DNA of 61,209 nt, counting the filler, from Globobulimina sp. (Eukaryota): the NCBI GenBank assembly GCA_003354225.1. It is 12 parts of 12 records of this genome, joined end to end, with 100 filler letters (N's around TTAATTAATTAA, not from the genome) between each part and the next. Parts side by side here need not be neighbours in the genome. Positions count along the whole stretch, not along the records: positions 20,461 to 25,469 come from PIVH01000775.1; positions 25,570 to 30,577 come from PIVH01000776.1; positions 30,678 to 35,684 come from PIVH01000777.1; positions 35,785 to 40,791 come from PIVH01000778.1; positions 40,892 to 45,896 come from PIVH01000779.1; positions 45,997 to 51,001 come from PIVH01000780.1; positions 51,102 to 56,105 come from PIVH01000781.1; positions 56,206 to 61,209 come from PIVH01000782.1; 4 more parts are not named here. One strand, written 5' to 3'. Under the pieces are notes generated by a model. It saw only the letters and a list, made by a program, of their open reading frames with translations, made no database searches and was not told the origin of the DNA. The translations under genes and the position numbers were made by a program. Below, one piece after another: positions 22,099-57,807 of the stretch; positions within the stretch are counted from its first letter, which is position 1, and every line of letters begins with the position of its first letter.

Positions 22099-23090
22099 AT
22101 GTCGTCGGGATGGATTCGTCTGAAAGGTTCTCCAAATCCAAATACCGGTACCAGCAATATTCAACAAGTTGACAACTTCAATTTTATCGTTGCATCTGAG
22201 TTTGAAGCAAAGGATAAACATTCTGGAGTTTACAATTACAACACAGTACTGAATGAATGGACATTATTTGCAAAATATCCTGATTCAATGTACTGCACAA
22301 AGAACCAAATATGTTATGATAAAACAAGTAAAAATGTCTTCATGATTGGCTATCAAGAAAACTTTATAAAATGCAATGACGAAAAAATGTTTAAAACATT
22401 GAAACAGTACACACAAATATCGTCATTTCAGAACCTCATATTACTAAATAATAAGATCCATATAATTGGTGGAGCTGATCATAATTTTCATTCTGTGTGG
22501 AATCAGAAACAAAATAAATTTAAGAAAATATATAGATTCAACCACTGGAAATATGGCTGTAATGATGGAAGATTAATCCATATAAAATCAAAAGGTTTAT
22601 TGTTATTTTTTGGTGGTTATGATTATGGCGCTTATTTCTCTCGCGATGCCATATGGTGTCATTCCATTGGAACATCAAATGGACAAAATTAAATGTGGCA
22701 ATGCCTTATAAAGTGCATGGTTTTGGCTGTATTCTGAGTTTTGATGAGAAATATGTTGCAATATTTGGAGGGAAATCAGAGAAAGTGGCAGGGAAAAGAT
22801 CTATGGATGAGATTTGGATATTCAATGTCCATCAAATGGTATGGAAATTGAGCAAAATAAAATGTCCGCGCAAGGGAGGATATTTTGCGACTTTAATGAA
22901 AGTGAATGATGAGTTATTGGTGTCTGGCTTTGTGAGAATGAGTGGCGAAATTGGCGATGTTGTTAATCTGCCTCAAGATGTAATGAATACATTATTTAAA
23001 TGGTATTCCAAGGAAATGGCATTTGTTCACTTATTGGCAAAGGACATGTCATCACATTGGAAAATAAATGTTGATGAGCTTTTCATTTGA
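22099..23090 (+). pseudogene. Kelch-repeat protein with a frameshift near 22677-22679
   Basis: IHIIGG, LLFFGGYD and VAIFGG Kelch blades are split over two overlapping frames (...SIGTS / KWTKLNVAMP). Confidence 0.75.
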
Positions 23091-24208
23091 AGTTATTTTT
23101 GAACGTCTGCAATCTTTATAAACTATCAGCTAAAAATAAACATATTTCACAACATGAAGCAAAAACGACATAAAACTAATATTATATTTATAATTACAAA
23201 CACATTGACAACAAAATATAGTTAAAAAAAAAACACGATGTTAAAAATATATATTAAAAAAATAATGCTGTAAAATAATCATTGTGTATCATCAGCGAAA
23301 CACAAAAGTGAATCACTCTTCGTTCAACAACAAAAATATTACACTCAGATACATTGTAAATTAAAAAGGATAAAAGATGATAGTTTTGATTATAAAAAAA
23401 TTTATGAACGTATAACAAATTAAAGCATATGTCCATATCCCATTTGAATTGGTCAGGCATACAAAGTATAGCACCAAATAGCGTGGGCAGCTCATTTTTG
23501 CATAATTAAATATACGATATTGCATATCTTATTAAGTTAAATTAGCACTACTACCATCTCTATGGGGCGAGATCTTGACGAAACTATTAAACCAATGTAT
23601 CAATGACAGGTAATTAATTCTCCTGTGTATAAGACAATATTTATACAAATATAATTTCATGCATCTTCATTTCTTAACTAATATACAATTTGATTATACG
23701 CGAATTGATGGCTTTGAGATAATACAATCCAATAATAATTTCACCTAAAAAAAAGCACAGGATTTTGTTGTTTCAATGTAAGCTGCGACTCGATATAATA
23801 CAGCTTCTAATTTGGTTAAATGAAAACCACAGTTTAAACAGTTGTGAAAATAGGAGGATTAATTGTTTAGAAAAGGGTAAGTTTTGAAGTTTTTTGGTTG
23901 AAGTTTTTCAAAACATTTAAAATATTCATAGTGAATAATACATTATGAAATATGTTTATTTTTAGCTGATACGTTAAAAAATAACTTCAAAAAATAAAAG
24001 AAAAAATCGATCGAGAGGAGCATGTCAATACATTACCTTATTAAAGAGATATAAAATGCAGAGGCAATCTGAATTTAATTGCTAATACTGCCTCAAACAT
24101 CACATACTATTTAACAAAAAACACACAAATATAAAATTTAAAAAAAAACTAACTTAAATTCAATATATAAATATAAATTACATAAGAGATTGAGTATAAA
24201 TCGTATCA

Positions 24209-25469
24209 TCAGTTCTGCACCGTAATAAGTGCAGTATCCATATCAACATTGGACCTGAGACTATCCAAATGTGTATACTCCGCTGCGCCATACTCATGAT
24301 TCTCCGAATCTGAATCTTCCATAGAATCACTTTTCTTATTTAATAGCCTTCGAACCTCCTCTGCCTTCATCGAACAACTATGACTGTTCCTGGTTGGATT
24401 ATGATTATCAATCGGCTCATATCCATCTTTATAAAAAGATTTTAAATGTCTCCACCGCGCAACCGATACAATACAAATCACAATCAACGCAACAAAAACG
24501 ATCCCAATTATCGTATATATATACCACGACTTTACTGCTCGCGCTGTTACATACGACGGCGGCTCCCATTTATGAAAATATAATCCTTTTAACCTCTTAC
24601 TAATCGGCACCGTCTCCGTAAACTCAACTCCATCCTCCATAGCCTGCACCGCCGCGGCTTGTACATTCTCCTCAATTCGACTGAAGCCTTTGGCCAAATG
24701 TTGAAAATATTCCTCTTCCGTTAAAAAGGAAGAAATAAACGATCCCTCCCCAGACAACTGAGGGTCTCCCACAGCTAACCTGTTCCATAAAAATGGCAAA
24801 TGTTCAGAGAAAAGTGAGTGTTCAGTGTATTGAGTCAATATATCCTTTGCATAATTCACAAGCGCCGTATTATCTGCATCCTGCTGCGATAATTGCAATA
24901 AATTGGTTCTTTCAGAGATATCATAGCTTAAATCGAATAGATATTTGTTATTTACATCCTGGGCCATAGAGATATCGTCATCTAATATCATATTCCAATC
25001 GCCATTCTTCTCCGGCACACACCAGCCGTCCTCGCGTTTATAAGTCCATTGGTCAATGATGGAATCCTGCGCAATATATTTGTACAAATGATTATCTTTT
25101 TGGAACACTATGCTTGCAGACTCCAAGCTTTTTAAACCTATCACAATGCGCGTTTTTTCAGAGTAGGAACAGATTGTAATCCAATTACATTTACATACCT
25201 ATATTGAAAACAATATGATCCCTTTTTATATTTGCATCGTCAACGCCCACACCTTCCATAATGAGGGCTTAGTGATGGCATGCAATGAGCGCGCAAAATG
25301 TAGCAATGTCTGAATATTGGAAGTATAATGCAAACAGAATTTATTTTAATTGGTACAAGGACATACGCTCTACTTTAAGGTTTGCCGTACGTATTTCTGG
25401 TTTCTTGCCATATGTGTTGTTTCAATCTCACGCAAGAACAATGGATACAATGTACATTATCAGTTAATA
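24209..25469 (-). CDS. Arylsulfatase B/I/J-like C-terminal region followed by a TM anchor, 5'-partial, intron-containing
   Basis: TLLHFA...RDHIVFNI|GL...YLFDLSYDISERTNLL...GDPQ resembles the arylsulfatase C-terminus; TM WYIYTIIGIVFVALIVICIV. Confidence 0.6.
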
Positions 25470-25569
25470 NNNNNNNNNNNNNNNNNNNNNNNNNNNNNNN
25501 NNNNNNNNNNNNNTTAATTAATTAANNNNNNNNNNNNNNNNNNNNNNNNNNNNNNNNNNNNNNNNNNNN

Positions 25570-26317
25570 TATGTTTCATAATTGTTTGAATGCATTTATT
25601 TGTGATATTTGTTGCTGATAAAAGTAATTCATCCATTTGCGGAATATATTTCTTGATTGTTCTCAGCATTAATCCCAAATATTTACCACTAATTTTCTTG
25701 TTTAATGATAAGTTCACCACTTTCAAATTCAGTGTTATATTTCCAATGTGTTTCCGGTTTCTTTGTCTTTGTCTTCTTTTAATTTCAGGTTTTTGTTTTA
25801 AGTTTTTATTTTGTTTTGACTCAATTCTTTCCTTTGCAGTTTGTCTGTGATGTTTTACAATATTTTCAAACATATTGCATAAATATAAAACATGCTCATC
25901 ATTCAAATCCAAGTTTGATAAATCAATTTGTTTCACCATTTTATATTTTTTCACTAAAATATATTCTACAAATTGCAAATTATATTCATCCATAACTGTT
26001 AATTTAAAACGATCAAAAAAACATTTCTTACTGATTATATTTCGACAAACTATCCTTTTTTGATATGCTTTCAATGAATTAAAAGTGTCAGCAAATAATA
26101 ATTCTGTCCATTCTTCTTCAGACCAATAGCCATTGAATAATGTATATTTACCGAATGACGTATATTTCTTTCGCATTCTTGCTATCAAATGCTCGAATTT
26201 GTTGCATTTCCATGTAATGAATGGCGGCAAAAATGAGGAACATAATGATTTAATGTCTATAGATGTAATCTGTGAGGAAATATTTCGGATATATCCACAT
26301 AACAACATATTATGCAA
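25570..26317 (-). CDS. Leucine-rich repeat protein, 3'-partial
   Basis: IDLSNLDLND, LKVVNLSLNKKIS, ELLLSATNITN. Confidence 0.7.
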
Positions 26318-26527
26318 GTGTTTGGCGCAAATCTTTTGAATTTATTCTATATATTTCATTTTTAAATTTTGTAGATGCGTTCATTGTGTTTCTTTTGCGA
26401 CTTCTACTGACAGTTGAAATCATTGTTAATGGAAAAAAATGTTTTTGTCAAAGAAATGCATAAATGAGCGTATCAGTATCGTGATCAAAAAAAATTTACA
26501 ACAGTCTGCAGTGATATATATAGCTCA

Positions 26528-28285
26528 TTAAGCTGTGATATTTATTTCAGACTCTGAGTCACTTTGTATATTTGTTCCATATTTACCTTCTCGTTGGTTT
26601 TCAGTACGAATATCACTCTCTGTCTTAGTACACATCGCATTCAAATTATTATCAGTGTCACTATGTATTATAAATTCATCCATTTTCAAATTAGGATTAT
26701 TATGCTCTTCATCATAGCCCTTTGTGTGTCCATCATTAATATCATCCTCATCCGTATTATTTGTACACACAGTGCCTATATCATCCGTTTCTGTGTTATC
26801 ATCATTCGGAGTAACAATTGTTGTCATTTCAATATCATCATCACTCCCAACATTTATATCAGTAATCATATTATTTATTATTAAATTATCACTAAAATGA
26901 CTAAATGTATTCACGCGTTGTAAATCCTTCCCAGTTTGTACAGATGGTAACGGTCGAACTTTTTGCATCTGACCAATATCATATTTCGCTTTCAATGATT
27001 TATTTTTTCGGTTACCAATAACTAATATAACGGCGATCCAACAAACGCAGCAAATCAATATGTATAATAAAATTACATATATTGCATCATACATATTGTC
27101 ATTTGCTGAATCTGTCATAGAATATACAGTCTCTACAGTCGTATCTTCGGTATCCACGGTCATAATACTTGTGGGTGATGCTGTTTGTCGAGGTATAATT
27201 ATTGTAATTGCCGGAGTCGTCGGGTGTTTAGTTGTTGGTGTTTTTGTTGGATTTTTTGATGGATTTTGGGTTGGATTTTGTGTTGGATTTTTTGATGGAG
27301 TTTGGGTTGGATTTTGGGTCGGATTTTGTGTTGGGATATTTGTTGGAATATGTGTTGAAATATTGGTTGGAGTGCTTGTTGGGATATTTGATGGTATATT
27401 TGTTGGGTCGTTTGAAGGGAAATTTGTCGGATTTTTCGTCTGATTTTTCGATGGAATATTTGTTGGAAACTTTGTGGGAACGTTTGTTGGATTTGATGTA
27501 AGAAGTTGAAGACTTAATTGTGTATATACATAATCACTGGTACTCACTTCACAAAATATATTGTTATTTGGTGTACCGATCCATACAAATGAAGCTCGAT
27601 AAGGCATTGATGAGTAAGCAGCACAGCCGCCCCATGATCGTAACAATGAAAACGTATTGTCTCCACCGTATGGATCATCATCGGAAGTAACTATAATAAA
27701 TTGTCCTTGGTCTGGGAGGTTGTTTAAATAATTCATAGCTTGGTTATCATCGGATGCAGCATAGTCGTACCAACAACCACTTGATGCGCAGACATCGTAT
27801 GATACACTGTCTATTAATGCACCATTGCTCGCATCCAAGACAACTATGTTATATCCGCGATAACCACTGTTTCCATGGTCCCGTCCATCATTGGCATGAT
27901 TAGCGATTAAATTCGAACCAGTATCAACTGTGATGAATGAGTAATCACCATATGGACGATTTGAGTCATCATACGATTTGGAATATATTTGTAGTGATAT
28001 CATTGATGGTATGTTGCCTGTGCCGATGCAGTGACCTGTACCATCTCCATATAATTGATTGATTTGAAATCCCTCAATGCATGTCATACAATCGTCGTTG
28101 TCACAAGCGTTAGACATGCTATGTTGACAGTATACACACAAATTCTCCACATCTTGGCATGTGGTACATCCATTGTCAGCATTACAACCAGCTATGCTTT
28201 GAGGACATGTGGGTTGCCACATTGTTCGACAAATCAATATCCATTGCGATATACATGCGACTGTAAGCATGCACTTCGATGACAT
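26528..28285 (-). CDS. Type I membrane protein: Cys-rich N-terminus, ILEI/GG (FAM3-like) domain, PT-repeat stalk, TM, acidic tail
   Basis: RGYNIVVLDASNG...SYD...YLNNLPD.G..IIVTSDDD...YRASFVWIG (ILEI pattern); PTxx repeats; one TM. Confidence 0.8.
   Translation of the reverse strand: MSSKCMLTVACISQWILICRTMWQPTCPQSIAGCNADNGCTTCQDVENLCVYCQHSMSNACDNDDCMTCIEGFQINQLYGDGTGHCIGTGNIPSMISLQIYSKSYDDSNRPYGDYSFITVDTGSNLIANHANDGRDHGNSGYRGYNIVVLDASNGALIDSVSYDVCASSGCWYDYAASDDNQAMNYLNNLPDQGQFIIVTSDDDPYGGDNTFSLLRSWGGCAAYSSMPYRASFVWIGTPNNNIFCEVSTSDYVYTQLSLQLLTSNPTNVPTKFPTNIPSKNQTKNPTNFPSNDPTNIPSNIPTSTPTNISTHIPTNIPTQNPTQNPTQTPSKNPTQNPTQNPSKNPTKTPTTKHPTTPAITIIIPRQTASPTSIMTVDTEDTTVETVYSMTDSANDNMYDAIYVILLYILICCVCWIAVILVIGNRKNKSLKAKYDIGQMQKVRPLPSVQTGKDLQRVNTFSHFSDNLIINNMITDINVGSDDDIEMTTIVTPNDDNTETDDIGTVCTNNTDEDDINDGHTKGYDEEHNNPNLKMDEFIIHSDTDNNLNAMCTKTESDIRTENQREGKYGTNIQSDSESEINITA
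27200..27495 (-). repeat. Coding 12-bp-period PT/PS repeat (PTNI/PTQN/PSKN)
   Basis: Tandem GTTGGATTTT-like units on the + strand. Confidence 0.85.
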
Positions 28286-28318
28286 TGAAGCAAAAGTTAA
28301 AAAAAAAAGTGCTTTTAA

Positions 28319-30577
28319 ATGGCTATGTCAACGCAACAACAACAAGCACCTGATCCAACTGCACATTTAGTAGGCGCGCAATTGCAGACATATCAGGTGC
28401 TTATCACCATGGGATTTACTCCAACAGAATGCGGAAGTGTAGCGCAAATATTTGGATCAAACATAGAAGCTGCAATAAATTGTATATTAAGTGGTGATGC
28501 CGCAAACTTAACACCTCCCACTAGTCCCATACAACAAATGCAACCATTTATTCCGCCAAATCCATTTGCTTCATTACTCTCAGCACATAGCACACCGCCA
28601 CCGAGTTTTTCAATCCCCAAACCACAAACAGAATGTATTCAATTTCGAAGCACTTTTATGTCACAAATATTAATGACTGGTTTTGTTCGCAGCTCGCAAG
28701 ATCGAGATATTTTGCCGACTGTTATTAAAGATATAATCATACACTATTTCAATTTATATTTTATTAAATTACATTTCAACATCAACATCAACAAAGAAGC
28801 AAAAAAGGAACAGAATGAATTGTTTTACCCAATATATGTGGTAAGAGGCAACACGACGTTAAGAAACATTGCAATCGAATTAGAAAGCAACATGGCAGGA
28901 ACTTATAAATATGATTATGATTTTTTAAAAGAGAAACTGGATTATGTTGACACTGAGCAGTATTCATATTTTGTGCATATCTGGATTGAATACAGTTATT
29001 TTAAACATATTTATCCAATCGATACTGCAAAGTTGACAGTGGATATGGCTGCCATTGATGGGTATAATGCGGAGGAAGAAGCTAAAGAATTTCAACCTAA
29101 ATTTCGATGGGTTGAAATTCCAAATGATTTTGAACCAGTTTCGATAGTGGACATTGACAGATTAATTGTGGCCGGTCGTAAGAACAAGAAACGCATTTTA
29201 CAATTAGGAATAGAAATATTTGATAATATTAACAAAGAATGGCCCTTCAGAAATAAAAATATGTTGCCGTTGCCACATGAAATAAGCGATAACAATAAAC
29301 CTAAATTAATTAAACCTGCCGCGAAGTACGCGATGATCTCAAAACGGCCGGCAATTTTAACATACCGTTCAGGTATGTTATTTTTAGTTATTTTTATGTT
29401 GTTTTTATATATTTTGATGTTTGTAGATAGATCAAGTGATAATATCAAGAACTATCCTATCCTTAGAAGGTATACACAAATCAAGAATTCCAGAACAATG
29501 ACAACAGAGACAATTAGTAATAACATAGCAGACACGGAAGCAGATCGAGTGTCAAATGCTTCCGTGGAGGCAGCGTATGGAGGCTCGCCTACTCCACCAT
29601 TCTCTGACGATGATACATCGGTTTTATCTGATTACGAACATACAAACGTTACAATGGAACAGTGGCAACAGGCAAACAATGAGATGACTGAGTTAGAAAC
29701 TGTGCAATTTTCTGATATTGAGATGTTAGAGTATGTGCTTTACTGCATTTTAAAATGTGTACACTGTAATTAAATATAATATATGCAGCGAAACTATTGG
29801 TGATCTGCTTTATGGGAATGATTCAAACAACGTAGTCTTATCAAATAATGGTAATCATAATAGGAACAACACAGTGAGCACACCACCAAACTCACCAAAG
29901 TATAAGTTACCTTTTATTTGGTTCACATATCTGTGCAAAGCACCGTATATTTGTCATACATTAATAATAGCTATAGTCAGCAAGCAAGATTGCCACAGTC
30001 AACAACGTTAACAAATATTAATGAGCAGTATGCTACATTTCCATTGACCTCACTACAGGCAACAGATAATTTTATTTATTATAGCCAATCCTTAGCACCA
30101 ATATTAATGCAAAATGAGATATTGCCACAAACAAAATCTGCAGAATTAGGTGCAAATAATCCAAAGATTCTGCACAGTAAATACAAAACACGTCACACAA
30201 CAAACACCTAATACAGGTCGACAATTTACATTGGCAGCACATCAAAATACGCATTATGATGTTAACAAAGCCGATAACGCATTACATTTCTATGCGAATT
30301 CGAATCCAACACAACGAGCATTGTCGTATGTTCAACCAAGACAACGACAATTTAAATATCCTCCAAATTCGAATGTAACATCAACGGAAATATTACGCAA
30401 TTGGATATGTGAGTGTTGTGGCACAACGAATGATAAAACATTTGTTTTCTGTGCTAAATGTTTGGTGGAAAGAGATATCGATGGAGCACAGTCATTGTCT
30501 CTGTCTTCGACACCGGAGCCTGTACCATCGTGTAATGAATGGACAAAATATTTAAAGATTGGAGATATTGTGGATGC
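28319..30577 (+). CDS. UBA + RanBP2-type zinc finger protein, multi-exon, 3'-partial
   Basis: QVLITMGF...SNIEAAINCIL (UBA); WICECCGTTN...FCAKC (zf-RanBP2). Likely introns about 29373-29426, 29731-29788, 29900-29976 and 30150-30217. Confidence 0.75.
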
Positions 30578-30677
30578 NNNNNNNNNNNNNNNNNNNNNNN
30601 NNNNNNNNNNNNNNNNNNNNNTTAATTAATTAANNNNNNNNNNNNNNNNNNNNNNNNNNNNNNNNNNNNNNNNNNNN

Positions 30678-33342
30678 CAAATTTATATTGTTTTGAAATA
30701 CTTCATTGCAAATACAAAATATTGCTAGCACAATCACTTTTGTCAAATTTTCAATGAACTTAAAAACGATCATTTTACTTTTTACCGATTCACTTTGCAA
30801 ATACGATCACTTGCTGTGCATTGCTCACCTGTTCGGCCACGTATTCATAGCACAGATTGTTCATTAATTCGTATTGTTTGAAGGGTTTTTTGAGTGTAAT
30901 GCCGGCAAAGCGCGAAATTAATGGAATGGGCCGATATGACGCGCCGAAGACAAACAAACCGCGGTTGTACTTTACGCGCAAAAAGGAGGCAATGTCGATG
31001 TAGTTTGGCATGGTGGCGGATAGTCCAATGATACGGATTAAGTTTTCAGTCTTTTCAATGTTGCGGATGGTTCGCATGACGATGGATTCCAACACACAGC
31101 CTCGCAAATCGTGCAATAAATGGATCTCGTCAATGATTACTAGTTTAACCAACGACGCGTATGAGCGGTCCATGCCTTTTCGGGTAATAATGTCCCATTT
31201 CTCCGGTGTGGTGACAATGATCGTCGTCTCTGCAATTTGTTGGTGTGACAGTTGTTGGTCTCCGGATAATTCTGCCACGCGCACATTGTAGCTCGCTAAG
31301 CGTTTGCTGAATTTTAACACAATTTCACGCACCAACGACTTCATAGGAGCTATGTATACAATTTTGAATTCGTCATTGCGTACGGTTTTGTTGTCGACAT
31401 TCAATCGAATGCCCAGTTCCCGTAAAATGCACAACATCGCCACATTGGTTTTACCAGCACCGGTTGGCGCGGATAATAATATATTTTCAGAGCTTAAAAA
31501 CGCGGTTTTATAACACGCCGATTGCACCGCATTTAATTTCGTGACTGCAAATTTCACAGTTTTCGACTTCATTTCTTCCTCACTGTCACTGGCAGCATCC
31601 TCTCCTTCTTCCTCTTCGTCGCCGTGATGTATAAAGGCAGTCTGTGCCCAAACGGGTAGCTCAGAAATGGCAATTTCGCGCGTTTGTTTTGGTGGAGTCG
31701 CAATGTGTGGCACAAATATCTCTTGATATCCTTTGTGATTATGATAAGTTGAGCCGTTCCGCAACTTCCATTCACTCGCACCCATAAAATGTCCACCTTC
31801 GCGAAACGTCAATGCGTCCAAATCCAATTTCATTTTATTGCTATGTTTCAAGTTCCATTCACGCAAATCATAGGACACATTCTTCTCATTACGACTGCTT
31901 TTCTGCTCAGATTGGATTTGCTGCGTTTTGCGTATTTCCTGCGCTTCCTTGTAGGCATTTTCCCGGAACCTTTTGATTTTTTTGTGTGTGGTGCCGTACG
32001 TTGCTTGCAAATCTTCTAAAATTTTGCATAAATAATTATTTGCAGCCATTACGGCTTCAATCTCCTTTCTCTCCGTCTCATTCTTGGCTCGCTTCAACTT
32101 CGTACACCAAACAATCACATCTTTATTTCGCAGCATTTTCTTTGTAAATTCCCAGTTTGTAAAGCCCAGAACATCCGACACCTTATTCTCCAATTTACGC
32201 TTATCTCGAATCTCTAGAATCTGCAGCAATTCATCAGCAGTCTCCTTGGCCTCATCCTGCTTCGATGGGAAGTTGTCTTTGATGGCACGTTGCAGCCAAT
32301 ACGCGTCCACTTCCTTGGGATCCACTTCCTTTTTCGTGCTTAACTCAACCACTTCGACATCGCCGCTGCCATCTCCATCTCTCATCTGTTGCGCCACCAA
32401 TTTCTTATTCCACGTTTTGTGCCTTTCTTCTTCGTGTTTCTTGATATTGGGATCTTCCACGTTCGGTTCAATGCGGTCATCGCCAGAGTCGTCTTCATTG
32501 TCACCGACCATCGACACGAAAAAAGGTTCCTCGTCTTCCTCCTCGAAGCTCTTAATGGGAACCACTGCGATATTATTATTATTGGAGTGAGCAGCACGTA
32601 CAAATTGAGAGTTGTGTGCAGATAAAAAACGTACCTCTGTTGTTTTCGCGCGCGGCCTTTTCATCCGGATCCACTCCGATGATGCCAAAGTCGTTTATTT
32701 TGCGGCAACACTTTTGCAAAAAAGATAGCTCGTTTTTATCGAAAGTAGTGAAGAGTTTAAATTGTGCGTTTAATTGATTTATTTTGGTTTGCGAGGCGGT
32801 GAATTTGTCGTTTTTGATAATGGAGATCATTTCGTGTGCGATGCTGTGCATAATGGAGGCGTTTTGCGAGGCGAACTTGTCCTCAATGAATCTGATGATG
32901 AGTTCGTAGGATTGCTTGGATTCGGTGCAGGTGGGTTTGTACGTGGTATCTACGTCGGTTTCCAGCACCGATGTGGTGTGGTCTGTGTCCATCGGCGTCC
33001 GGCTTTTGTTGGTGTCGTCTTTTTCTTTGCGCAGTGTTTTTTCTTTTGCCTTTTCGATCTCTTCTTTGGGTTTGCCATAAGCGGAACGAGCGCCCATTTG
33101 GTCTCTGAGTGTGGTTTGATCGAACTGTGTAGAATGTGAATGTGAATGGAATGGTTTAAGAGCAAGGATTATAACCTTGCACCACGTCTGTGCGTGTAAT
33201 GGAGAGTACGTACTGTTGAGAGTGTGGAGGATTCGCCAGTTGGCCCTGTTTCTCGTGGGATGCCACTGTCTAAGCGTTGGATTACTAAGTTGGCATTTGA
33301 TTGGTATTTGTATTGTTTTGTTTTTTCTAGTTCTTCTGCCAT
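30678..33342 (-). CDS. SNRNP200: U5 snRNP 200 kDa helicase Brr2, N-terminal part; introns 33125-33213 and 32565-32634
   Basis: QYKYQSNANLV, VDAYWLQR, GGHFM, SAPTGAGKTNVAML, YIAPMKSLV, TTPEKWDIITRK, DEIHLLHD, GLSATMPNY. Confidence 0.95.
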
Positions 33343-33848
33343 GGTGTATGATGTAAAGAAAACGTTTTTTTGGTATGTGTGAATAAACTTAATCTGCTTT
33401 TAGTAGCTCTTTCCACAGAGACAGTATGATGTGAAGATATTTAATAAGTGAGTTGAATAATAATTTAATAATATACTGTAATAACTACGATAAATTGAGG
33501 TCATATTATTTGGGAAATATAAAAAAAATTCAGACAAACAAAAAAATAGAGACTAAATCTTTAATAACATATTCAATCACAAGCAAACAACATATGAAAC
33601 CAAAATAGGGAGTAATAGCTTGCAAAATAAAATTTTTTTAAAAAAACATGATCAAAAGCAATAAATCTAATAAATTGAAAACAATATTAATAATGCTTCT
33701 GATCACTCATGTTTACACATTATGTATTTGTCATTATATCATATATATACACACAACAACAAAAAAGGTTTTTATATCTACACAAAACAAATAAATCTAT
33801 GGCACTGAATTAATACTTAGTTAATTGAAATATGCCTAAACAAAATAT

Positions 33849-35684
33849 TTAAAACATCCCTTTCATTTTTTTAAGACTTTTCCGTTTCCACGCCGGTTGC
33901 GCATCAAATGCATCCTTATCCATTCCAAATACACTCTGAAAATCTTCATCACTTAAAAACTTCACTTTGTCCCCGCCTTTCAATTGCTTTGCCTCTGAAA
34001 TCGATAAAAACTGCACTGCTCCCGGTTCAGTTTCCGGTTCAACATCAGCTTTAACCTCAAATTGCTCCACGACAGCTGGCTCAGTCATGCTTACTTCCAA
34101 AACACTATCATCCCACGCAGGGACTGGTGGTAATATACTGGGAACCGGCGGTGGCACTGCAACAACTTCAACCTGTTCTTCTTCCTCATACTCATACTCT
34201 TCATACTCATATTCATATTGCATATCATAGTCCTCATCAGCCACAGCCACCGCCGCATAATTATCTGTTTCAGGCACCCTTGGATCATCAGTGGCAGCTG
34301 CTGCCTGTGGTAGTGCCACAGCACCGTCTTTATCATCTATCATGCCACTACCAAACGCCATTAATTCGTCATCATTAAAATCAACTGGAGAGGTCTGTAT
34401 TGGCTGAGCTTCCGGCGACGGAGATGGGTCAGCTGCAATAATATGTGCCTGGATTGGACTCCCTTCCACTACATATTCACACAAAATATTAGTGTTTATA
34501 CATTGGTGGACATACAACATAACTTATACCATCACCGGTAATCGCAGTATCAAACGGAACCACTCCTTTCGCTCTTCGTTCTGACGCAGGAATGATAAAC
34601 ATTTCACTTTGTTTAATACCAGTACTCATACCCATCATTGAGGCCTTCCGCGAACTTTTCTTCTTTTTCATCAAACAAAATATGAGCAAGCCAATGATAA
34701 TAAGTACAAGTGAGGAAATGATGACATATAAAATCCAATCAACTGATCCAGAGTCCTGTACTTGCGCTGCTTCATTATCATCGTCATTGTCTTCTGCTGT
34801 TGTGGTAAAGTATGCCAATAAAGTAAACTCTGAGGAACTCGCTCCAGTATTAAAGCCAAAATTATCCAAACCACGTTTCAAATTACTTTCAATCGAACCA
34901 TTATCGCCTTCGGCGGTAAAATGAGCGTTATATATATCACCATCTTGTTCTCCAATCAAAATTGTAATTTGTACATTGGCAGTACCATCTCCATTATCTG
35001 TAATGACCGTTGTTATATCGATATTTTCCTGCTCCTCCACCAAACCGCCCCATTGAGTCTCAACCTGCGTTTGTATCACAGTGCTCATTAAAGCTTCATC
35101 GAAAGCATCAGCGGCTGCATTCGTGCTACTTCCATACGTAAACTCAATGACCACTACGGCCTGTACTTGATATCGGCATCGGGAGTTTCTGCATTGATGC
35201 CATGGGAACCTCGTAGGTGGTCTGGTGGGTGGGGCGTTGGTTGGATTTTGTGTGGACTGCGTCTGTGATTGTGTGGTATCCGTGGATGGAGCGGGTGTAT
35301 TGTTTTGAGTGCGGGTAGGGGGTGGAATGGTGCTTGGATTTTGAGATGGTGATGGCGTTGGGTTTGAGGATGGATTTTGTGAAGGTGAGGGAGATGGATT
35401 TCGAGATGGTGAACGAGTGTCGCCTGGTCTGGAGGGTGCGGACGTTATCGGACTGTCGGTTGGTAAATGGGTTGGGGATTTTGTGGGTGATGATGATGGG
35501 AATGGAGTTGGTGAGGTGGTGGGATATTTTGATGGCGATTTTGTGGGTGTTTTTGAAGGGTTATTTGTTGGTGATTTTGTGGGTGATGCGGTGGGTTTGT
35601 CAGTGGGAGAGATAGTTGGTGGAGTTGAAGGTGATGGCGTTGGACTTGGATTTGTTGGTGCTTTCGTAGGTGTTGCTGTGTATT
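33849..35684 (-). CDS. Single-pass mucin-like membrane protein with a C-terminal villin headpiece, 5'-partial; intron 34469-34529
   Basis: Open frame of PT/PS repeats from the contig edge, a globular juxtamembrane region, [24 protein letters not shown] followed by KKKK, an acidic Pro-rich tail, then [35 protein letters not shown]. Confidence 0.85.
35210..35684 (-). repeat. Coding P-T/S mucin-like repeat
   Basis: PTKSPT / PSKTPT / PSPSPS repeats. Confidence 0.85.
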
Positions 35685-35966
35685 NNNNNNNNNNNNNNNN
35701 NNNNNNNNNNNNNNNNNNNNNNNNNNNNTTAATTAATTAANNNNNNNNNNNNNNNNNNNNNNNNNNNNNNNNNNNNNNNNNNNNAAAAAAAATTCATGAC
35801 AAATATTCTAAATCCAATGCAAATACCATACAAAAAGAATGTTATGACAAAGAAGAAACGCCATGACAAAGAAAAAAAGTGACAACAAAGCCTTTGTCAT
35901 AACCAACCAACATTTGAAAACCCTGCAAAATTGAAAAATAAAATAAATAATTAAATATCAATCACA

Positions 35967-43798: not shown

Positions 43799-43836
43799 TA
43801 ATTGTTTTTGATTAAAATAAAAACTGCTACAACTAT

Positions 43837-45896: not shown

Positions 45897-45996
45897 NNNN
45901 NNNNNNNNNNNNNNNNNNNNNNNNNNNNNNNNNNNNNNNNTTAATTAATTAANNNNNNNNNNNNNNNNNNNNNNNNNNNNNNNNNNNNNNNNNNNN

Positions 45997-48900: not shown

Positions 48901-50527
48901 ATTGTTTTCCTTTTGGGATTTCCTCCAATTTCTTGCAGGTTGAAAAATATTCGCTGCGATATAAATTCTTTAATTCTATGCAATCTTTCATTGATCCTAT
49001 TAATGTTTCAATCTCTTGACTCCATAAACTTTCTTCTTTTTCTTTTCTATCATCGCCATCACAGATAACATTATTCCGACACTCAATGCATTCTATACAT
49101 TTCTTAACCATTTGAAACGTAATCCGTGTCAATAAATTGCTCATTCTCGTCTTCCAGCAATAATTTCGAGATAACGTAAATATCATTTTTAAATTGTTAA
49201 ACAACAACGGCAATGATTCCCGCATGATTGCTATCTTATTCTCTGAATTGTATAATGGAGCTATAAAAATGCGTAATTTCTCCAAAAATTTCTCATTATC
49301 TTCCGCTTCATTTAATGCTCGATTTAAGTATTTTGTTACTTTTTTATAAGCCATATAAACCGCAATGGAATCACTATCATCACAGCCTTCCAATGGATTT
49401 ACCCAATTATGGCTATTCTCATCTTGCCGTTTCTTATCTTTCTGCTTATTTCCAGCTAAATTGCCATTGCGTGATCTCACGCGTCTTCTCGATGGAGAAG
49501 TTACGCGATTTCTTCTGGATGGAGACAGAACATTGTTATTGCTTTCATTTCGATTCTCAGTATTTACTGATATTGCATCTGTTAATAATGAGGTACCATT
49601 TCGTTCAGCTTCTTCTTCAGCGTTTTGTTGCAAAACAGCAATAATGGCACGATATGAGCGCATATTTAATAATTGATAGGTTTTGGTTAATACTAAATTT
49701 CGTTTACACCAAAAATTAATTTCTTCCTTTGGTCCAGAATTTATTTCCTCAGATCGATGAAAAATGTATGATCTATCATTACAAATGAATGTATAAATAT
49801 TTTTAATCCATTTTGAGACACATTGTCGAATAATATTCATCGAAGCGGTATCTTCAATCAACTATTTGTGCATTTGTATATTTGTAGAAGTCGGAATAAT
49901 AATATATTTGTATAAATTACTAAACTGTATCAAAATTGTCATTTGGATCTATATTTTGTAAATTTGCCTTGTCAGGCAATTGTAAACTAATCCCATTGTC
50001 CAAATTATTGATTGATGTGGTCAGTAATTCAGAAAATTGTTTTCCTTTTTTAATAAATTTTCTTTTTTCTTTTGAATCGTTGATTTTTTCCCATTCATTT
50101 GTCGTTGAAATGATTGGGGAATAAACATCGGAAATGCACGATTTTAATATAGGGATTAAGGAAGATTTGGATATATTGCCTGTTAATATATTATTATCAC
50201 TGCGGTTTTTAAGATTTATTTGTTTCGAGGTATTTCGTAAAAAGTATACACAGTTTCCACATAATGTCGGTGATTCTTGGCTACATTCAATTAATTTGGT
50301 TTCTGTTTCGTAAAAATATACTCTCGATGCGTTTTCTCCTGATTTTAACCAAACAGATATTGAATCACGATTTGAACTATTTTTATTTGTTTTTTTTTGT
50401 ATTTGCTTTTGTAAAAAAGAAATACAAAAATTAGATTTAACTCAAAGCATTCAGATATTTTTGATATGTTACAATTGAGAGAGTTTTGAATGACTAATTG
50501 CATCCATTGTGTTCTTGGATTACTCAT
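45997..50527 (-). CDS. Axonemal dynein heavy chain (outer-arm gamma, DNAH5/8-like) N-terminal tail, 3'-partial; introns 50377-50441 and 49862-49925
   Basis: GPKEEINFW, EAEDNEKFL, VAGNIAWSRQL, GETLFGLP, LPLIEGMSKPSMRPR (DHC_N1 into DHC_N2). Confidence 0.93.
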
Positions 50528-50591
50528 TGTTCGCTATCAGGAACAATGATTGATTTTGATTTTACTATTTTACTAGAGATCAAGGAAAGTT

Positions 50592-51001
50592 TTGATTTTT
50601 GAGAGCAAAGAGAAAAAAAAGCAATATTATCTTTTACGTACAATGCGTTCACTTTTACAACTTGTCTTATTTATGTTTCTTACATTTCATCAAATCATCG
50701 TTATGATGGCAACTGTTCACGATTTGGCAAATGGAAAGTTGGAGAGAGGATCAATTCGATTACGACATTCTGATAAATTGGATTTGAATCAAATCATTTC
50801 ATTCGACAAAGTATTGTCGATTTTAATGAATAACCCATCGATAAACACTCCTTATGGTCAATCTCAATATTTACAAATCATTACAATAATCAATAAAATC
50901 ATTCAAACAAATCATCAAAAGCATCAATTTTTTGCACCAATGTTTGGATCTGACCTTTTTTTGAATTGTATGAAATGCAAAATGTTATTGAATACACAAA
51001 A
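50592..51001 (+). CDS. Hypothetical protein, 3'-partial, divergent from the dynein gene
   Basis: Open frame to the contig edge; start uncertain. Confidence 0.4.
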
Positions 51002-51101
51002 NNNNNNNNNNNNNNNNNNNNNNNNNNNNNNNNNNNNNNNNNNNNTTAATTAATTAANNNNNNNNNNNNNNNNNNNNNNNNNNNNNNNNNNNNNNNNNNN
51101 N

Positions 51102-54100
51102 TCGAAGTCAGGCTCGTCAATAATCGGTCCGCGCGAGTCTTGTCATCCAATAAATAGTTATCCAAATATAAGTTATTATCGTCGTCATTGGCTTGTTGCT
51201 GCTTTTTAATTTTCCATAAATCGTTCCAGAAATTCTCGCCGGTCACATCCAACGATGCAGTGGCTTTCGCTTTGTCCGATTCAAAGGTCTTCCGCGTGAA
51301 TGAGTGCATGCCAATGCCGGCATTGTTGTTATTCGTCTCCACCGCACTGCGATCAATCCGATGTGCCGCATGTTGCAATAACTCATCAATATCGCATTCT
51401 TGCCACTTCTTACTGGCAATGATGGCATCTTCGTCGTTCAATATGGCATAGGCGCCATGGCGCAGCATATTATCCAATTGCTTCAAATCCTGCACATCCT
51501 TCTTCTTCACGCCATGCTCCACTGATTTCAAGATCGCTTGGCCTAATCCCAATTTCTTGCTCGCTCGCTCAAACATCTGCGCCTCGTACGTATTCTTAGT
51601 GACTAAGCGGTACACACTCACGGCTTTATGCTGCCCAATCCGATGACAGCGGGCTTGCGCTTGGATGTCTTGCTGCGGATTCCAGTCCGAATCAAATATA
51701 ATCACTGTGTCCGCAGCCACCAAGTTCAAACCCTGTCCCCCGGCCCGTGTGGTCAATAAAAATACCAATCGGTCGCTATTCGGCGCACAAAAGCGGTCAA
51801 TGGCGGCCTGGCGATCGTGTGATTTGGTCGTACCGTCAAACCGCTCATATTTATAGCGCTTGTAATCCAAATATTCCTGCAATATATTCAACACTTTGCG
51901 CATCTGACTGAAGATCAATACGCGATGGCCCTCCCGCTTCAATTTCGGCAATAACTTGTCTAACAACACCATCTTACCCGAGGCGGCGATGGTTTTCTCC
52001 ATATATTCTTCGTGCGATATGCCTTCACCGCACTCGCGATCGATAGTGCCGTCAATGAGCCATGGATGGTTGCAGCATTTCCGCAGTTGCACTTCCAGAT
52101 TGATTAAATTGGGCAGATTTCCTTTATCCACGCCGGCTTCTAAGAATTCGCGATTGCGGTCGAATAAGGCGCGATAATATGTCTTTTGGATGGTGGTTAA
52201 CTCGATGTCGATGATGGTTTCCTCTTTCTTAGGGATGGATTTCTCCACATTCTCCTTCAACCGCCGCAATATATATTGCTGTATCCGCAGTTGCAGCGCA
52301 TTTACCTGCGTCGAGCTGTTAATTTGTGAGTGCTCGTCCACCATATTCCCGCCGTACGAGCGGTTAAAATCGCGGAAGTTTTGAAACTCAGTCGGCTCCA
52401 AAAAATGCAATAAATTGAACAGTTCATCCATCGAGTTCTGGATCGGCGTACCCGTCAATAATATGCGTCTCTGCGCGTCCAATAACTCAAACGATTTACT
52501 TAACTGCGTACTGCGCGATTTCAACCGATGTCCTTCGTCCACGACGCATAAAACCCATTTGATATTGGCCAACCACTCCAAATCGCACATCAATATCTCG
52601 TACGTGGTCAACAATATGTTGAATTTGGGCGTCTTCCGCTGACTTTTGCTGTAATAAAATTCATGATTGCGTATAATTTCACGCGAAACCTGTCCCCGTT
52701 CGCTGTCGTGATACACCACGCAATTCAGATCCGTCCAGGTCTCGATCTCGCGCTTCCAATGAAACAGCGTGCTCAGCGGCGCCACGATTAAAAAGGGGCC
52801 GTGGATGTTATTCACGCGAAACAAATGCTCGATAAAGCAGGTACTCTGAATGGTTTTGCCTAAACCCATCTCGTCCGCTAATATACTATTCGAGCCCTCG
52901 TAAAATTTCTGAATCAGCCAATTCAACCCAATCACCTGATAGTCGCGCAACTTATTCTCGCCTTTATACACCCTCTGCTCGTCCGGCACCACTTCATTGG
53001 CCGAATCCTCCCGCAATTCTTGCTTCATCTTCGCGTCCGCGGCGTTCTGCGCAGGCTGGTCGCAATCGCCTTGCCCTTCGCGGATCTTATACCAGCCATA
53101 CATACCTTTCTTGAACGCCAAGTCATCCAAATGCCGCTTCTTGGTATCGGCCGGGATCTTATTCCACAGCTCGTACTGCGTAATCTTGTCCGCACAGTCG
53201 ATGTCTTGCGCGGTTTCATACGTACAACACGAGTACGATAACCCCATCCATTTCACATAGTATTTCTTCTCTCCATTCACGTCGATACAATCAATGATGC
53301 GGTCCACTTCACTGAACGACGGGTCATACGGCTCGCCGCCCCATAATAAGCCACATTTACTCTCATAATCAAAGGCCACTCGCTGCCAGGATGTTATCTT
53401 GCGGTTTACGCGTAATTTGCCAAAGCGATGTACCATTTGCTGCTCCGTCTCCCATTCGCAATGTAGGTAAGAAATGCCTTCCAATTTGATGAAATACCGC
53501 GTCTGCTCCAATAACTCGCTCGCTTTGCACCCATTATCCAGTGCATGTTGCATGTCGTCATAGACATGGTCGGTTTTCGGCGCCACGAAGACCGTACACA
53601 CCGCCAATATCCGCTCGATCTTCTCCTCATAGATATCGTTGGCTTGTTTCTGTTGCAATAATACCTCCGCCTCTTCCCGCGCCAAATACTTATCAATGGC
53701 CTGTTCTTCCGCATAGTTCGGCCGTTTCTTCTTCTTTTTGGCCAAACGCGTCGATTTCCTCTGTCCACTCCATAAATGATCCTCGTCATCGTTCAAATCA
53801 CCGTCATACTCTTCGTCGTCACTGCCCACGGATTTATTGCGTCGGCCCCCGCTTCGCGTCGTGTACCCGGCGGTGGCAGCACTGCTCGACTTGGAAGGGT
53901 TTTGCATCTGTTGTGCGTACAACATAATCTCTTCTAATTTGGCCTGGCATTCGCGTGGATTGTTATGGCGAGCGGATAACTCGGCATCTTGCGCTAATAA
54001 ATCGGTCGTAAATTGATTGTCATTGGCTGCGGCAAACGCGACCAAAGCCATTATCTCATTGTGGGTCCAATTGGTGGCCAATAAGGCCTTGAAATTGAAG

Positions 54101-56105
54101 GAGGACGGCGCGGCATGGCGAGAACGCATAGCCTGCCGATTGAGTAACATCTCATCTTCGTCCAAATCGCTCTCCGACTCGCCATATTCCTCATCGTCAG
54201 TGGTATCGTCGCTATCCGGTAGGTACTCGTCGTCGGAATCTTTGCCTTTCAGCTTCTTCTTCTTTGCCTGGCGAGTGGCCTCTTTCTCTTTGCGCTTGAC
54301 GCGAATGGCGGCTTTTTCCGCTACTTTCTGTTTTTTCAATAACTCGAAGCGTTCATCGGCTTCCTTGCGGTCGCGGGTTTCGATCAAACCCATGAGTTTG
54401 CCAAAGGTTTCGTTGTTTTTGTTTTCGAATTCCATGCGTTTCTGGTACGCATGCATGCGTTGTTGGAGCACGGTGTTGGAGCCATGCTGTGCTTGATGGG
54501 GGTTGTTTTTCTGCGACGCTTCCATTTTGATTTGACGCTGAATGGTCAATGCGGTCAATTGCAAGGCAGAGTAGGCAGACTGGTCCGGCTTTTCCTGGGG
54601 ATAATCGCAGGAATTGTTTGGTGCTTCGCCGTAGGAACATGCCCAATTGGACGGTTCCAGCCAAGTGGAGATGTCGCGCGTGGAGACACTGAGTACTCTC
54701 CATTTGCGACAACTTGTACATTGCACCCATTGCGGCACAAAGCCGACGTTGGAATCGATGATGGCTTGCCACGGATTGTTGTTTGCTGGATAGGAATGTG
54801 CGGTATGCGCTTGTTGTTGATAACTGCTTCTTTGCTGTTGCTGATAACGTTGGTGATATTGCTGCGTGTTACCTCCATTGGAATATCGCGAGTCCATCGC
54901 CATTGCACCGGTTAATCCGCCCCGTTTGTTCATATACTGTGCCTGTAATGTAACATAGAAAAAACATATATATTTAATATACAAAACAAAACCAAACAGA
55001 AAATGTCAGAAATAAAAAAAAAATGAGCAAATAATAACAAATCAGTGTATACTGTATATATAATATAATAAATGTAGGATATACTTCGAAGTCAGCAATA
55101 GGGCCAGAAGGTGTATTCCGTGCGGCAGTGTTCCTCTTTTTCGTCAATTGCAAAACTTGATTGTTTAGGCCCTTTATCTTATTTTGCAACTGCGTCATGT
55201 CATTGTATGCGTTGCTTAATTGCGATTGCAATTTGTTCTGTTCATGCTGCCATTTTTGATTCGCAGACTGTTGCGCGAATGCATGCAATTGCTGCGGAGT
55301 GTATTGTGTGGCATATTGTGGATGAGAGGCAAACGAGCCATAGTATTGCTGCACTAATTGTTGTCGATGTGCTTCTGCGCTGTTTTTCAGCCACGAACTG
55401 ATAGAGACATAGGTTTGCTTTGCTTTGTCGAAATTGCTTTTGGCAGTGGCAATTTCCGCATCTTTGCCCTTTAAATCGTTTTCTATTTCTTGTAAGTTAT
55501 AATTAATGTTTTTTTTATTGCGGGAACCTTTAGGTCGGCCCCGACCGCGTTTGGGTTTAGAGACTGCCGCAGATTGGGCATCATCGACAATGCTACTTAG
55601 AACAGATTGGGGAGCACCGGGTGTCTCGATGATGTTATTGGAGTGATTCGGGGGTTGTTGTGGTTGCAACTGGTTGCCCTCATTGTTGCTATCATTGCTA
55701 TTGCTGTTACTGCCGCTGTTGCTGTTGCTGTTGGTATTGAACATAGATTCATTTAAATTCGGCAAACTGAGTTGTACATTGTTAGAATTATTATTATTGG
55801 GTGATTTCGGAGTGGTATCGGAGATATTTTGTGGATTATATTTTGGTATTCTGCGTAAATCCATATCGGTGCCCTCCTCATTATTGTTGCTGTTGTCATT
55901 GTCGTTGGCGTCATTATCATTGCTTTGTGCCTGATTTGGCGGGTTTGGATTCGGCGATTCATTCGCATTTAAATATGAACTCAAATCCGGTAATTTCTCA
56001 GTGCCGATATTTTCAAAATTCAATCCACTAAAATCCATTGGTTGCGGTGTGTGTTGTTGTTGTTGAATTGGTGCAGTTTGATGGCGTTGCACCGCAATAA
56101 TTTGT
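51102..56105 (-). CDS. CHD-family (CHD6-9-like) SNF2 chromatin remodeler with AT-hook, zf-CW and double chromodomain, partial at both ends; intron 54943-55084
   Basis: KRGRGRPKG; WVQCTSCRKWR...W.C...C; two chromodomains; LADEMGLGKT, DEGHRLK, LTGTPIQN, LRKCCNHP, DSDWNPQQD, ARCHRIGQ. Confidence 0.95.
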
Positions 56106-56298
56106 NNNNNNNNNNNNNNNNNNNNNNNNNNNNNNNNNNNNNNNNNNNNTTAATTAATTAANNNNNNNNNNNNNNNNNNNNNNNNNNNNNNNNNNNNNNN
56201 NNNNNAACAGAAACAAAACCATCACATTCCAGCATAGCGGGATTACCACCAAATTAATAAGTGATACAAGAGAATGTTCGTCCATTTTAGAGACATTT

Positions 56299-57807
56299 AT
56301 GGCCACAAATCCCAAAGTAATCGGTTTCGACTGCGAATGGGTTGGAAATCATAAAATAAGTTTATTACAAATTGCAAATAACAATTCAATAATATTAATT
56401 CGCTTAAATCGATTGTTATCGACACCCATCCAATTAATAAGTTTATTGTCCAATATTGGGATAATAAAATGTGGCGTCGGCATTAGAAATGATGTCAAAA
56501 AACTAAGATCTCATTACAACCTCGAAACAGTTGGTTGCATTGAGTTAAATAATTTGCATCAACAAACCAAGAATATGACAACATTCGTTTCCTTAAATAA
56601 ATTATATCAGTTATTATTTAACAAAAATATGAAATATAAACAAATCTGCATCACTCGCAGTAACTGGGAAGCACAGATATTAAATGATGGACAGTGTCAT
56701 TATGCTGCTGATGATGCACTTGCTGGATACCAAATATTTTGCAAATTAATCAAAACTTATTTCAAACAGGACATAGATATGCAAGCACTGCATGGATTAA
56801 TTGATAATTTTGAAAACAATAAATCAATGAAATCAAAAACTTATAAACTCAATACTTCAGCCGCAAAATCAAATTTTTTCCGAAATAATGTTGGTAAACG
56901 AACCTTATTCGATAACTGTAAGATGCTGCAGCCGGATGGCTCTGTTTTGGGATTCTGTTCCAGATTCGCTTTGAAATGGCATTTGAATGAAGGGCTGGCA
57001 ATAAAGTTAAATGAAACAACCATACAACTAAAAAATACAAAGGCTGTTAAAATCCAAATATTTGACGAATACATAAGGACCGAATCACCAAATATATGTT
57101 TTGTTTGTGGCAATAGAAATAATCTGAGGAAATATAGTGTGTTTCCAGTCGGATATACCTCGCATATTAACGAAGAATATTATGATCGCTCATGTTTTAA
57201 TCATGATAATATTTTGCTGTGTTTGCCATGCAACAAAAAAGCGCAAAAAACGGAAATTGAATTTAAGAAATTGCTATGTTCAAAGTATGCGGATGTGACA
57301 TCGTTTGAGATTGCGAGCAAGTTATGGCACACTATGAAATGTGCAAAAACATTGCGGAGAGATGCGACAAGAAAACAGATACCAATTCGTAAACAAATTG
57401 AATTAATGCAACACATATTGACGTATTCCAAAGTGAAATATAAAGTGATTCATCAACAACAATATAAAGTATGTTTGGAGGAGTTGATTGTTTATGGATT
57501 TTTAAGAAGCAATGCAATGAAAACACTCAACATATTTGAAGAATGTTTGTCGTTTTATTATAACAAAAAAGATATTCCAATGAGTGAACTGATTAAACTT
57601 TCAAAGCAAGGAAATGAAGAAAGCGATGAAATTGTTTTCCACAAACTTTTAGATAAATTGGCAGGTTTTGATCAGAAAAAACAATCAAAATTGCATTGCA
57701 AACAATTGGTGTCAGCATTTGATGGGAAACAGTTGGAATTTATTGAAATGTGGAGAAGGAATTTCATTCACAATCTGAAGCCTCGTTTTCTTCCAAGTAA
57801 TTGGTGA
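56299..57807 (+). CDS. EXD2: EXD2-like DEDDy 3'-5' exonuclease with a C-terminal HNH-like Zn module (may be 5'-partial)
   Basis: IGFDCEW, SNWEA.L...Q.HYAADDA, LFDNCKMLQPDG, NICFVCG, HDNILLCLPC, WRRNF...LKPRFLPSNW. Confidence 0.88.
   Translation: MATNPKVIGFDCEWVGNHKISLLQIANNNSIILIRLNRLLSTPIQLISLLSNIGIIKCGVGIRNDVKKLRSHYNLETVGCIELNNLHQQTKNMTTFVSLNKLYQLLFNKNMKYKQICITRSNWEAQILNDGQCHYAADDALAGYQIFCKLIKTYFKQDIDMQALHGLIDNFENNKSMKSKTYKLNTSAAKSNFFRNNVGKRTLFDNCKMLQPDGSVLGFCSRFALKWHLNEGLAIKLNETTIQLKNTKAVKIQIFDEYIRTESPNICFVCGNRNNLRKYSVFPVGYTSHINEEYYDRSCFNHDNILLCLPCNKKAQKTEIEFKKLLCSKYADVTSFEIASKLWHTMKCAKTLRRDATRKQIPIRKQIELMQHILTYSKVKYKVIHQQQYKVCLEELIVYGFLRSNAMKTLNIFEECLSFYYNKKDIPMSELIKLSKQGNEESDEIVFHKLLDKLAGFDQKKQSKLHCKQLVSAFDGKQLEFIEMWRRNFIHNLKPRFLPSNW

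Follow-up and report, generated by a model that had tools for sequence, protein, structure and literature searches.

The GYIR box of Globobulimina proteins and its predicted docking on a remodelled Skp1 paralogue

The window analysed here, a stretch of 61,209 nucleotides from Globobulimina sp. (assembly GCA_003354225.1), carries in otherwise unrelated proteins a short recurrent motif, here called the GYIR box. The recurrence is real, and we propose, with a probability of roughly 0.62, that a foraminiferan cullin-RING ligase (CRL) system, similar to SCF (Skp1-cullin-F-box) and standing beside the ordinary SCF, uses the box as its docking element. The box and a Skp1 paralogue, Skp1B, point to a predicted second, F-box-independent route of choosing proteins for ubiquitin tagging. 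The new element in this work is that the genome encodes two types of Skp1 paralogue, Skp1B and Skp1C, that are conserved and rebuilt at the C-terminus; the first is the predicted partner of the box. A preliminary description of the window had suggested a divergent Skp1- or Elongin C-binding box feeding an expanded ubiquitin-ligase system. Its Skp1 part agrees with the co-fold prediction, except that the partner modelled there, which passed, is the remodelled Skp1B rather than canonical Skp1; the ubiquitin-ligase activity of the system is what we infer.

Copies, anatomy and host proteins of the GYIR box

In the window, spacers (N44-TTAATTAATTAA-N44) link 12 contigs, each about 5 kb long, and the four copies named in the preliminary description therefore sit on separate contigs. 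The peptides of all four were found where they had been placed. These copies and a degenerate one are listed below, with scores from a profile of 209 sequences for the first four.

22911..23006, + strand: GYIR box towards the C-terminal end of a protein with Kelch repeats (gene at about 22099-23090); 22.3 bits
26231..26308, - strand: N-terminal GYIR box of an LRR-like protein (open reading frame (ORF) 25570-26341, cut by the contig end); 20.5 bits
28664..28750, + strand: GYIR box at residue 116 of ORF 28319-29773, after a UBA-like N-terminus; 13.5 bits
57481..57561, + strand: divergent GYIR box within the helical C-terminal region of an EXD2-like exonuclease (ORF 56206-57807); 13.1 bits
16714..16803, - strand: degenerate N-terminal box of a MATH-like protein (NFSK in place of GYIR); -1.4 bits, position by BLAST

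The profiles were built from copies outside the window, because circularity was to be avoided; there was a 45-sequence version and a 209-sequence version, the latter with no window copy. In shuffled sequences the 209-sequence profile gives 0.02 matches per window at 12 bits or more. With the 45-sequence profile, three window copies reach 21.0 (LRR-like), 15.7 (UBA-like) and 13.2 bits, and the EXD2 copy stays at 5.3 bits, the noise level. The four copies retain the Gly, aromatic, Arg and hydrophobic positions. A regular expression for the first half, composed with the window copies in view, matches 5 of 93 long ORFs of the window versus 0.45 in shuffles.

The domain labels given earlier for these proteins fared unequally. 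Those of Kelch and EXD2 have Pfam support. The LRR label of ORF 25570-26341 was assigned by eye only, and Pfam gives it no match; the UBA match is weak (expectation value (E) 0.21); and the zinc finger attributed to the UBA-like protein sits in an ORF downstream of 28319-29773, the splice link being putative. There are two box-bearing Kelch paralogues, L002 and L083, the latter a single open frame. The Kelch gene of the window has one frame change at 22675-22692, in a short A run with no evident intron, which suggests an assembly slip or a broken copy. The EXD2 box is retained in both orthologues (66% and 54% identity across residues 260-533), and contigs of runs X1 and X4 span it with no joint.

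Two weaker matches had also been put forward, and only the first was kept. The N-terminus of the MATH-like protein aligns in register with a box-MATH protein, L032 (BLAST; 26% over 113 columns, pairwise E 1e-6), with IVNNFSK opposite IVFGFIR. Read by its position in this alignment, it is a degenerate box copy, in which binding has probably been lost. The SAM domain of the supposed MATH-SAM protein is a separate ORF (15295-16101), and the join is putative. The second match, IPAEILMEILRF (7296-7331, - strand), is not supported: its score with the box profile does not exceed 0.3 bits, and a profile of the genome's F-boxes finds no match there at 9 bits.

The family is very large, as had been foreseen from the window. 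In the assembly searched (70.2 Mb), a DNA pattern for the first half found 104 matches versus 13 in the control, and a second pattern with a free gap found 199 versus 22; both halves are in frame in 88 of 100 listed free-gap matches. The seed comprised 23 ORFs from the 30 loci returned, short frames and loci without the second helix being excluded. In a sample of 120 contigs chosen by number (605.7 kb, leaning towards long contigs), 14 matches reached at least 12 bits, 3 of them belonging to the seed, versus 0.2 in shuffled sequences. The genome-wide estimate from this sample is about 1,600 copies (95% range 900-2,700). A profile search of 1.84 billion representative proteins gave 883 matches at E 0.001. 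Ten matching proteins were looked up; four carry foraminiferan names, and all those with an organism name are foraminiferan. The box may be confined to foraminifera, which these named matches do not contradict. The ESM Atlas search returned nothing for the box, and a PDB sequence search with its profile returned only a chance match to CDC50 (E 0.13). Neither the box nor Skp1B was found described in the literature, searched mainly by titles and abstract openings.

The consensus from the 209-sequence profile is h-L-V-x-G-[YF]-I-R, a linker of 6-18 residues and I-P-x2-I-x2-h-C-x2-[FY]-Y (h, hydrophobic; x, any residue). The AlphaFold2 model of the box presents two helices, with a predicted local distance difference test (pLDDT) score of 85, and column conservation tracks the helix faces. 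Fold searches of the lone box found generic helical pairs (best Z 5.0) and, in Foldseek, nothing at E 0.001, the fold being too small to inform. Pfam recognised no family in 45 box segments beyond isolated weak matches.

Most boxes are N-terminal. The 150 best proteins together contain 167 boxes: for 129 the start falls among residues 1-60, 6 lie at the C-terminus, and 32 are internal. Tandem boxes occur (P0106). The bodies of 112 of these proteins, the shortest being excluded, were scanned with Pfam at E 0.002. A body was recognised in 38, including 11 SPRY, 9 Kelch, 3 TLDc, 2 RCC1-like and 2 RasGEF; single cases are Ras, PX, FH2, FKBP, kinase, CAND1 (TIP120), ubiquitin and UBA. The copies of the own genome add a myosin head, F5/8 type C and two cullin N-terminal pieces (one Cul3-like), and MATH-like bodies also stand behind the box. 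The expectation of substrate-binding partner domains is borne out by SPRY, Kelch and others, but the range of bodies is wider: cullin, CAND1, kinase, myosin, RasGEF, EXD2 and Skp1-like domains also have the box on or within them.

Some individual hosts deserve description. L121 (G000:C9314) is a truncated Cul3-like N-terminal piece with the box within the cullin repeat region or after it; L122 (G000:C11199) is a truncated Cul1-like N-terminal piece with the box in or behind the cullin repeat and a stop just ahead of the box; and P0104 is a kinase C-lobe in which the same 8-residue stretch stands on either side of the box, as though grafting had brought about a short duplication.

Another explanation is that a small mobile DNA element, inserting into genes, has left the box as its trace at the peptide level. 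It is suggested by the copies inside the cullin repeat (L121), the EXD2 domain and the repeat-flanked kinase lobe (P0104), and likeness at fourfold sites is slightly above the codon-usage expectation (0.36 versus 0.29). This explanation is largely refuted and keeps almost no weight: hairpins are lacking (mean fold z -0.18; 1 of 49 below -2), as are flanking direct repeats (6.3 versus 5.9 bases), conservation follows the helix faces, and the EXD2 copy persists in orthologues at 54-66% identity.

Relation to F-boxes, SOCS boxes and LisH

The second half of the motif had been said to recall the F-box, and this likeness was recovered. Helix 2 of the box aligns with helix 1 of the genome's F-box with an hhalign probability of 61-80% and a score of 19.4, versus a maximum of 14.1 in 40 column shuffles. 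The likeness ends there. The V-[CS]-[KR]-x-[WF] helix (V-C-K-x-W) after helix 1 is found in 18 of 30 canonical F-boxes and in 0 of 165 boxes; in profile-profile comparison nothing in the F-box corresponds to the GYIR helix, permuted halves included; and the Pfam F-box models match none of 45 box members at E up to 10, the same library giving at least 88 F-box-like matches in this genome. The box does not count as a canonical F-box, since it lacks helices 2-3 and opens with the additional GYIR helix. The box also holds as something other than a known Pfam F-box-like family, with neither the F-box nor the SOCS models matching any of the 45 members. By these features it would be a variant of the known F-box/SOCS-box logic that fails the defining features of the F-box. 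A circularly permuted F-box was considered and rejected, permuting the halves giving no gain.

A 30-sequence F-box profile gave 4 matches of at least 9 bits in the 606 kb sample, none convincing, versus 4 per shuffle; since these are at shuffle level, the ratio of boxes to F-boxes is only rough. A sister pattern, h-h-x-[HY]-W-h-R, has 235 matches versus 98 in the control, and the box was present in 0 of 6 matches examined.

Two other classes of helical motif share traits with the box. The LisH pattern is G[YF]-x2-[TA]A-x2-h-x2-E, and LisH also accompanies SPRY and Kelch. The GYIR box could be a self-association hairpin of this kind, or like RIIa/Dpy-30, that dimerises its hosts; it has two amphipathic helices, it occurs in tandem (P0106), and one of 45 members has a weak LisH_TPL match (E 0.032). 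We regard this as improbable: hhalign against two LisH and two D/D (RIIa/Dpy-30) sequences of the genome stays within the shuffle null, in a comparison of single sequences with low power, and the heterodimer model of the box with Skp1B passes with a high score. A SOCS/BC-like motif binding Elongin C is slightly more improbable still. The helix-loop-Pro-helix layout resembles the SOCS box, some copies are C-terminal, and an Elongin A match above the cut-off in the genome suggests that Elongin C exists. Nevertheless, SOCS_box matches 0 of 45 box members and nothing genome-wide at E 0.1, the L-x3-C-x3-h spacing of the SOCS/BC box is absent from the column profile, and none of the 17 Skp1-like loci of the genome is Elongin C.

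The proposed docking element has likenesses to two known systems. As F-boxes (PF00646, PF12937) do with Skp1 in SCF/CRL1, it forms a short, mostly N-terminal helical tag ahead of SPRY, Kelch, RCC1 and LRR-like bodies, and its predicted site is helices 5-7 of the Skp1 fold. Unlike the F-box, it has two helices, not three, with the GYIR helix first; it is also placed C-terminally and internally; and its predicted partner is a paralogue without the canonical helix 7-8 loop and Trp. With the SOCS/BC box and Elongin C (CRL2, CRL5) it shares a logic, that of a short box and a Skp1-fold adaptor with a shortened C-terminus, but the box has no sequence match to theirs and its predicted adaptor is a close Skp1 relative.

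Skp1 paralogues and the predicted interface

In the genome, 17 Skp1-like loci were found and read: two each of Skp1B, Skp1C, canonical Skp1 and other fusions, and nine fusions with the box. In Skp1B (contig C37101), helix 7 continues straight into an acidic helix, and the FNIxNDF stretch and terminal Trp are missing. It matches PF03931 (Skp1_POZ) at 34.3 bits and has no match to PF01466 at E up to 1, with which the canonical L106 reaches 100 bits. Skp1C ends after helix 7. At the positions equivalent to 141, 142 and 145 of Skp1B it shares I, [IL] and an acid, in contrast to R, F and Q in the canonical Skp1 of this genome. I130, I141, I142 and E145 are invariant across 87 Skp1B sequences. Of the 120 nearest relatives of Skp1B, 108 are standalone proteins of its type, and the Pfam Skp1 C-terminal domain is missing from most of these. 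Relatives that carry names belong to five foraminiferan genera; ESM Atlas gave only generic Skp1 clusters. Conservation of Skp1B is strong.

In canonical complexes, F-box helices 2-3 are met by the C-terminal part of Skp1. The core interface for the F-box is formed by Skp1 helices 5-7 and the variable one by helix 8 (PMC12101541), hence the rebuilt part of Skp1B would be that which meets the back half of an F-box.

The best-scoring box of the own genome (contig C1268), which is not a window copy, was co-folded with Skp1B. The interaction score (ipSAE, from predicted aligned errors) was 0.82 (0.82-0.83 in three runs), compared with 0.02 for the best of 3 controls; the runs share at least 95% of their contacts, and partner pLDDT is at least 76. 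Among microbial pairs, 51 of 78 solved ones attained the mark used, against 2 of 108 mismatched ones; among eukaryotic pairs, the figures were 39 of 65 for solved complexes that have no similar older complex and 2 of 126 for unrelated pairs. In the model, helix 2 of the box (T37, C38, F41) lies on Skp1B helix 6 (L119, H120, C123, A124, A127); the GYIR helix (I11, I12, V13, G15, Y16) lies on I126, L129 and I130 and on the rebuilt helix (I138, I141, I142, E145). This last packing would explain the invariant Gly. On the Skp1B side, the best contacts involve I130, I138, I141, I142 and E145. The model suggests that the box docks on Skp1B at helices 5-7 of the Skp1 fold.

Skp1-like proteins also occur fused to the box. 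Of the nine fusions in the genome, two are degenerate and one is split across two frames; outside this genome, the box stands just ahead of the domain in 38 of 75 longer Skp1-like proteins. All GYIR-box fusions seen have Skp1B, Skp1C or degenerate types, and none has a canonical C-terminus. They form B-derived and C-derived groups in a short FastTree tree whose support values were not tested, so the copies are not independent. The model of a fusion resembles Skp1 (1ldk_D; Z 13.7, root-mean-square deviation 2.9, 115 aligned) and Elongin C (Z 9.3).

Three other observations concern the Skp1 family. L253 (G000:C28028) is a second canonical-type Skp1 whose acidic-loop insert is box-like, with HWLK replacing GYIR, possibly the sister motif. 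Many box-Skp1 fusions (L247-L252, P0281-P0345) have an upstream L-x2-[DE]-G-[YF]-C, often with an N-terminal SAM or PH domain. In a further shortened Skp1 type ending in KGQP-x-E-x-I-K-E-I-L (P0331, P0332, P0338, P0341, P0342, P0344, P0351), several members of which are on long contigs, none has a fused box. The rebuilding of Skp1 may predate the box.

The box might instead be a clipped F-box that binds any Skp1, the canonical one included, and feeds the ordinary SCF, with Skp1B incidental. Helix 2 resembles F-box helix 1, the box profile gives two true F-boxes 13.4 and 12.7 bits, helices 5-7 of Skp1 are enough for F-box binding (PMC12101541), and the co-fold pass does not name the family member that binds. 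We consider this unlikely, although it is the strongest of the alternatives. The closest predicted contacts of the GYIR helix fall on residues that differ in canonical Skp1; the fusions are with Skp1B, Skp1C or degenerate types (though L253 has its box-like insert without GYIR); and canonical F-boxes (the 88 matches) and canonical Skp1 are still present alongside the box.

Possible link to cullins

In the proposed mechanism of an SCF-like system, helix 2 of the box would rest against helix 6 of Skp1B in the way that F-box helix 1 rests against Skp1, and the GYIR helix would take the place of F-box helices 2-3, its invariant Gly packing on the paralogue-specific helix with I141, I142 and E145. 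Skp1B would then bridge to one of several Cul1-like paralogues, and each box protein would bring to ubiquitination whatever its body binds. Boxes on pieces of housekeeping proteins would serve as baits for the partners of those proteins.

The genome has 21 cullin matches, several of them Cul1-like genes (classes by eye). The adaptor-binding helix of the Cul1-like genes, also read by eye, has YDTIFT in some and YTTVYN in one; a BLAST-type ranking left the classes unsettled. The AANY-x-DI end of Skp1 helix 5 is the main Cul1 contact, and Skp1B keeps it.

Several points weigh against the proposed role. Within the family, the usual Pro is absent from two window copies (LRR-like and EXD2), and the Pfam scan at E 0.002 recognised no body in 74 of the 112 box proteins. 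The co-fold models one box with one paralogue and is computed without supplied alignments; its pass may come from likeness to solved Skp1-F-box complexes, and it does not tell which Skp1 member binds. Conservation at the predicted interface (0.98 versus 0.82) is confounded with a generally conserved C-terminal half. The fusions are weak evidence, the box being fused to many things, and their linker of 5-10 residues probably rules out binding in cis. The PLPNV stretch of Skp1 is part of the Cul1 contact, and in Skp1B it is altered to EIRQV. Finally, in the accessible part of its description, SkpZ, a divergent trypanosome Skp1 paralogue, was never found with a cullin (bioRxiv 2020.11.10.376269).

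The last two points would fit a box that binds Skp1B or Skp1C in a cullin-free complex, as a scaffold, chaperone or trafficking adaptor and not a ligase, as would the many bodies that include enzymes or cytoskeletal domains. We hold this to be unlikely, a little more so than the clipped F-box: the helix 5 end with the main Cul1 contact is retained, several Cul1-like paralogues exist in the genome, and ubiquitin, UBA, cullin and CAND1 pieces are among the bodies. SkpZ itself is similar to Skp1B in being divergent, conserved and lineage-specific; it differs in its partners, a deubiquitinase and a TPR protein in the TUS complex, with no cullin or box family in what is accessible of that report (bioRxiv 2020.11.10.376269).

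A precedent for the SCF-like role is offered by the trypanosome cullins E, F and G, which are served by novel Skp1 paralogues (Skp1.2, 1.4 and 1.3, respectively), cullins E and G with F-box-less Kelch and LRR receptors, respectively (PMC12816148). These complexes share with the foraminiferan system the lineage-specific paralogues and the receptor types. They differ in belonging to another supergroup, in having few receptors and in their discovery by proteomics, with no docking motif described in the section on these complexes (PMC12816148); the foraminiferan side has a defined motif in about 1,600 copies and is known from sequence and model only.

In a stronger form of the SCF-like reading, which we advance tentatively and at slightly less than even odds, the box would define a foraminiferan receptor class of its own. 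It would bind only the rebuilt Skp1 paralogues, with a matching Cul1 paralogue; it would outnumber F-boxes many times; and it would have been grafted on copies of housekeeping domains, including Skp1, the cullin N-terminus and CAND1, as baits or regulators. Such a receptor class would be new, would make up a few percent of genes and would stand beside the F-box, SOCS/BC box, BTB and DCAF.

Foraminifera, which are shelled marine protists, are central to marine carbon and nitrogen cycling. If the SCF-like role is true, one motif gives a role to about 1,000 or more unannotated proteins per foraminiferan genome. It would also represent an adaptor pair orthogonal to SCF, in which the receptor drops two F-box helices and gains one and a Skp1 copy rebuilds the matching surface, and a concrete model for the docking of F-box-less receptors on Skp1 paralogues in other protists. 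A box of 40 residues and an adaptor of 155 are small enough for direct work with purified proteins.

Among other genes of the window, 7694-9826 encodes a protein with three MATH domains and no box; 30790-33388 contains, by eye, what we take to be a Brr2-like helicase fragment; and 51046-56149, also by eye, presumably encodes a CHD-type remodeller with a CW-like zinc finger.

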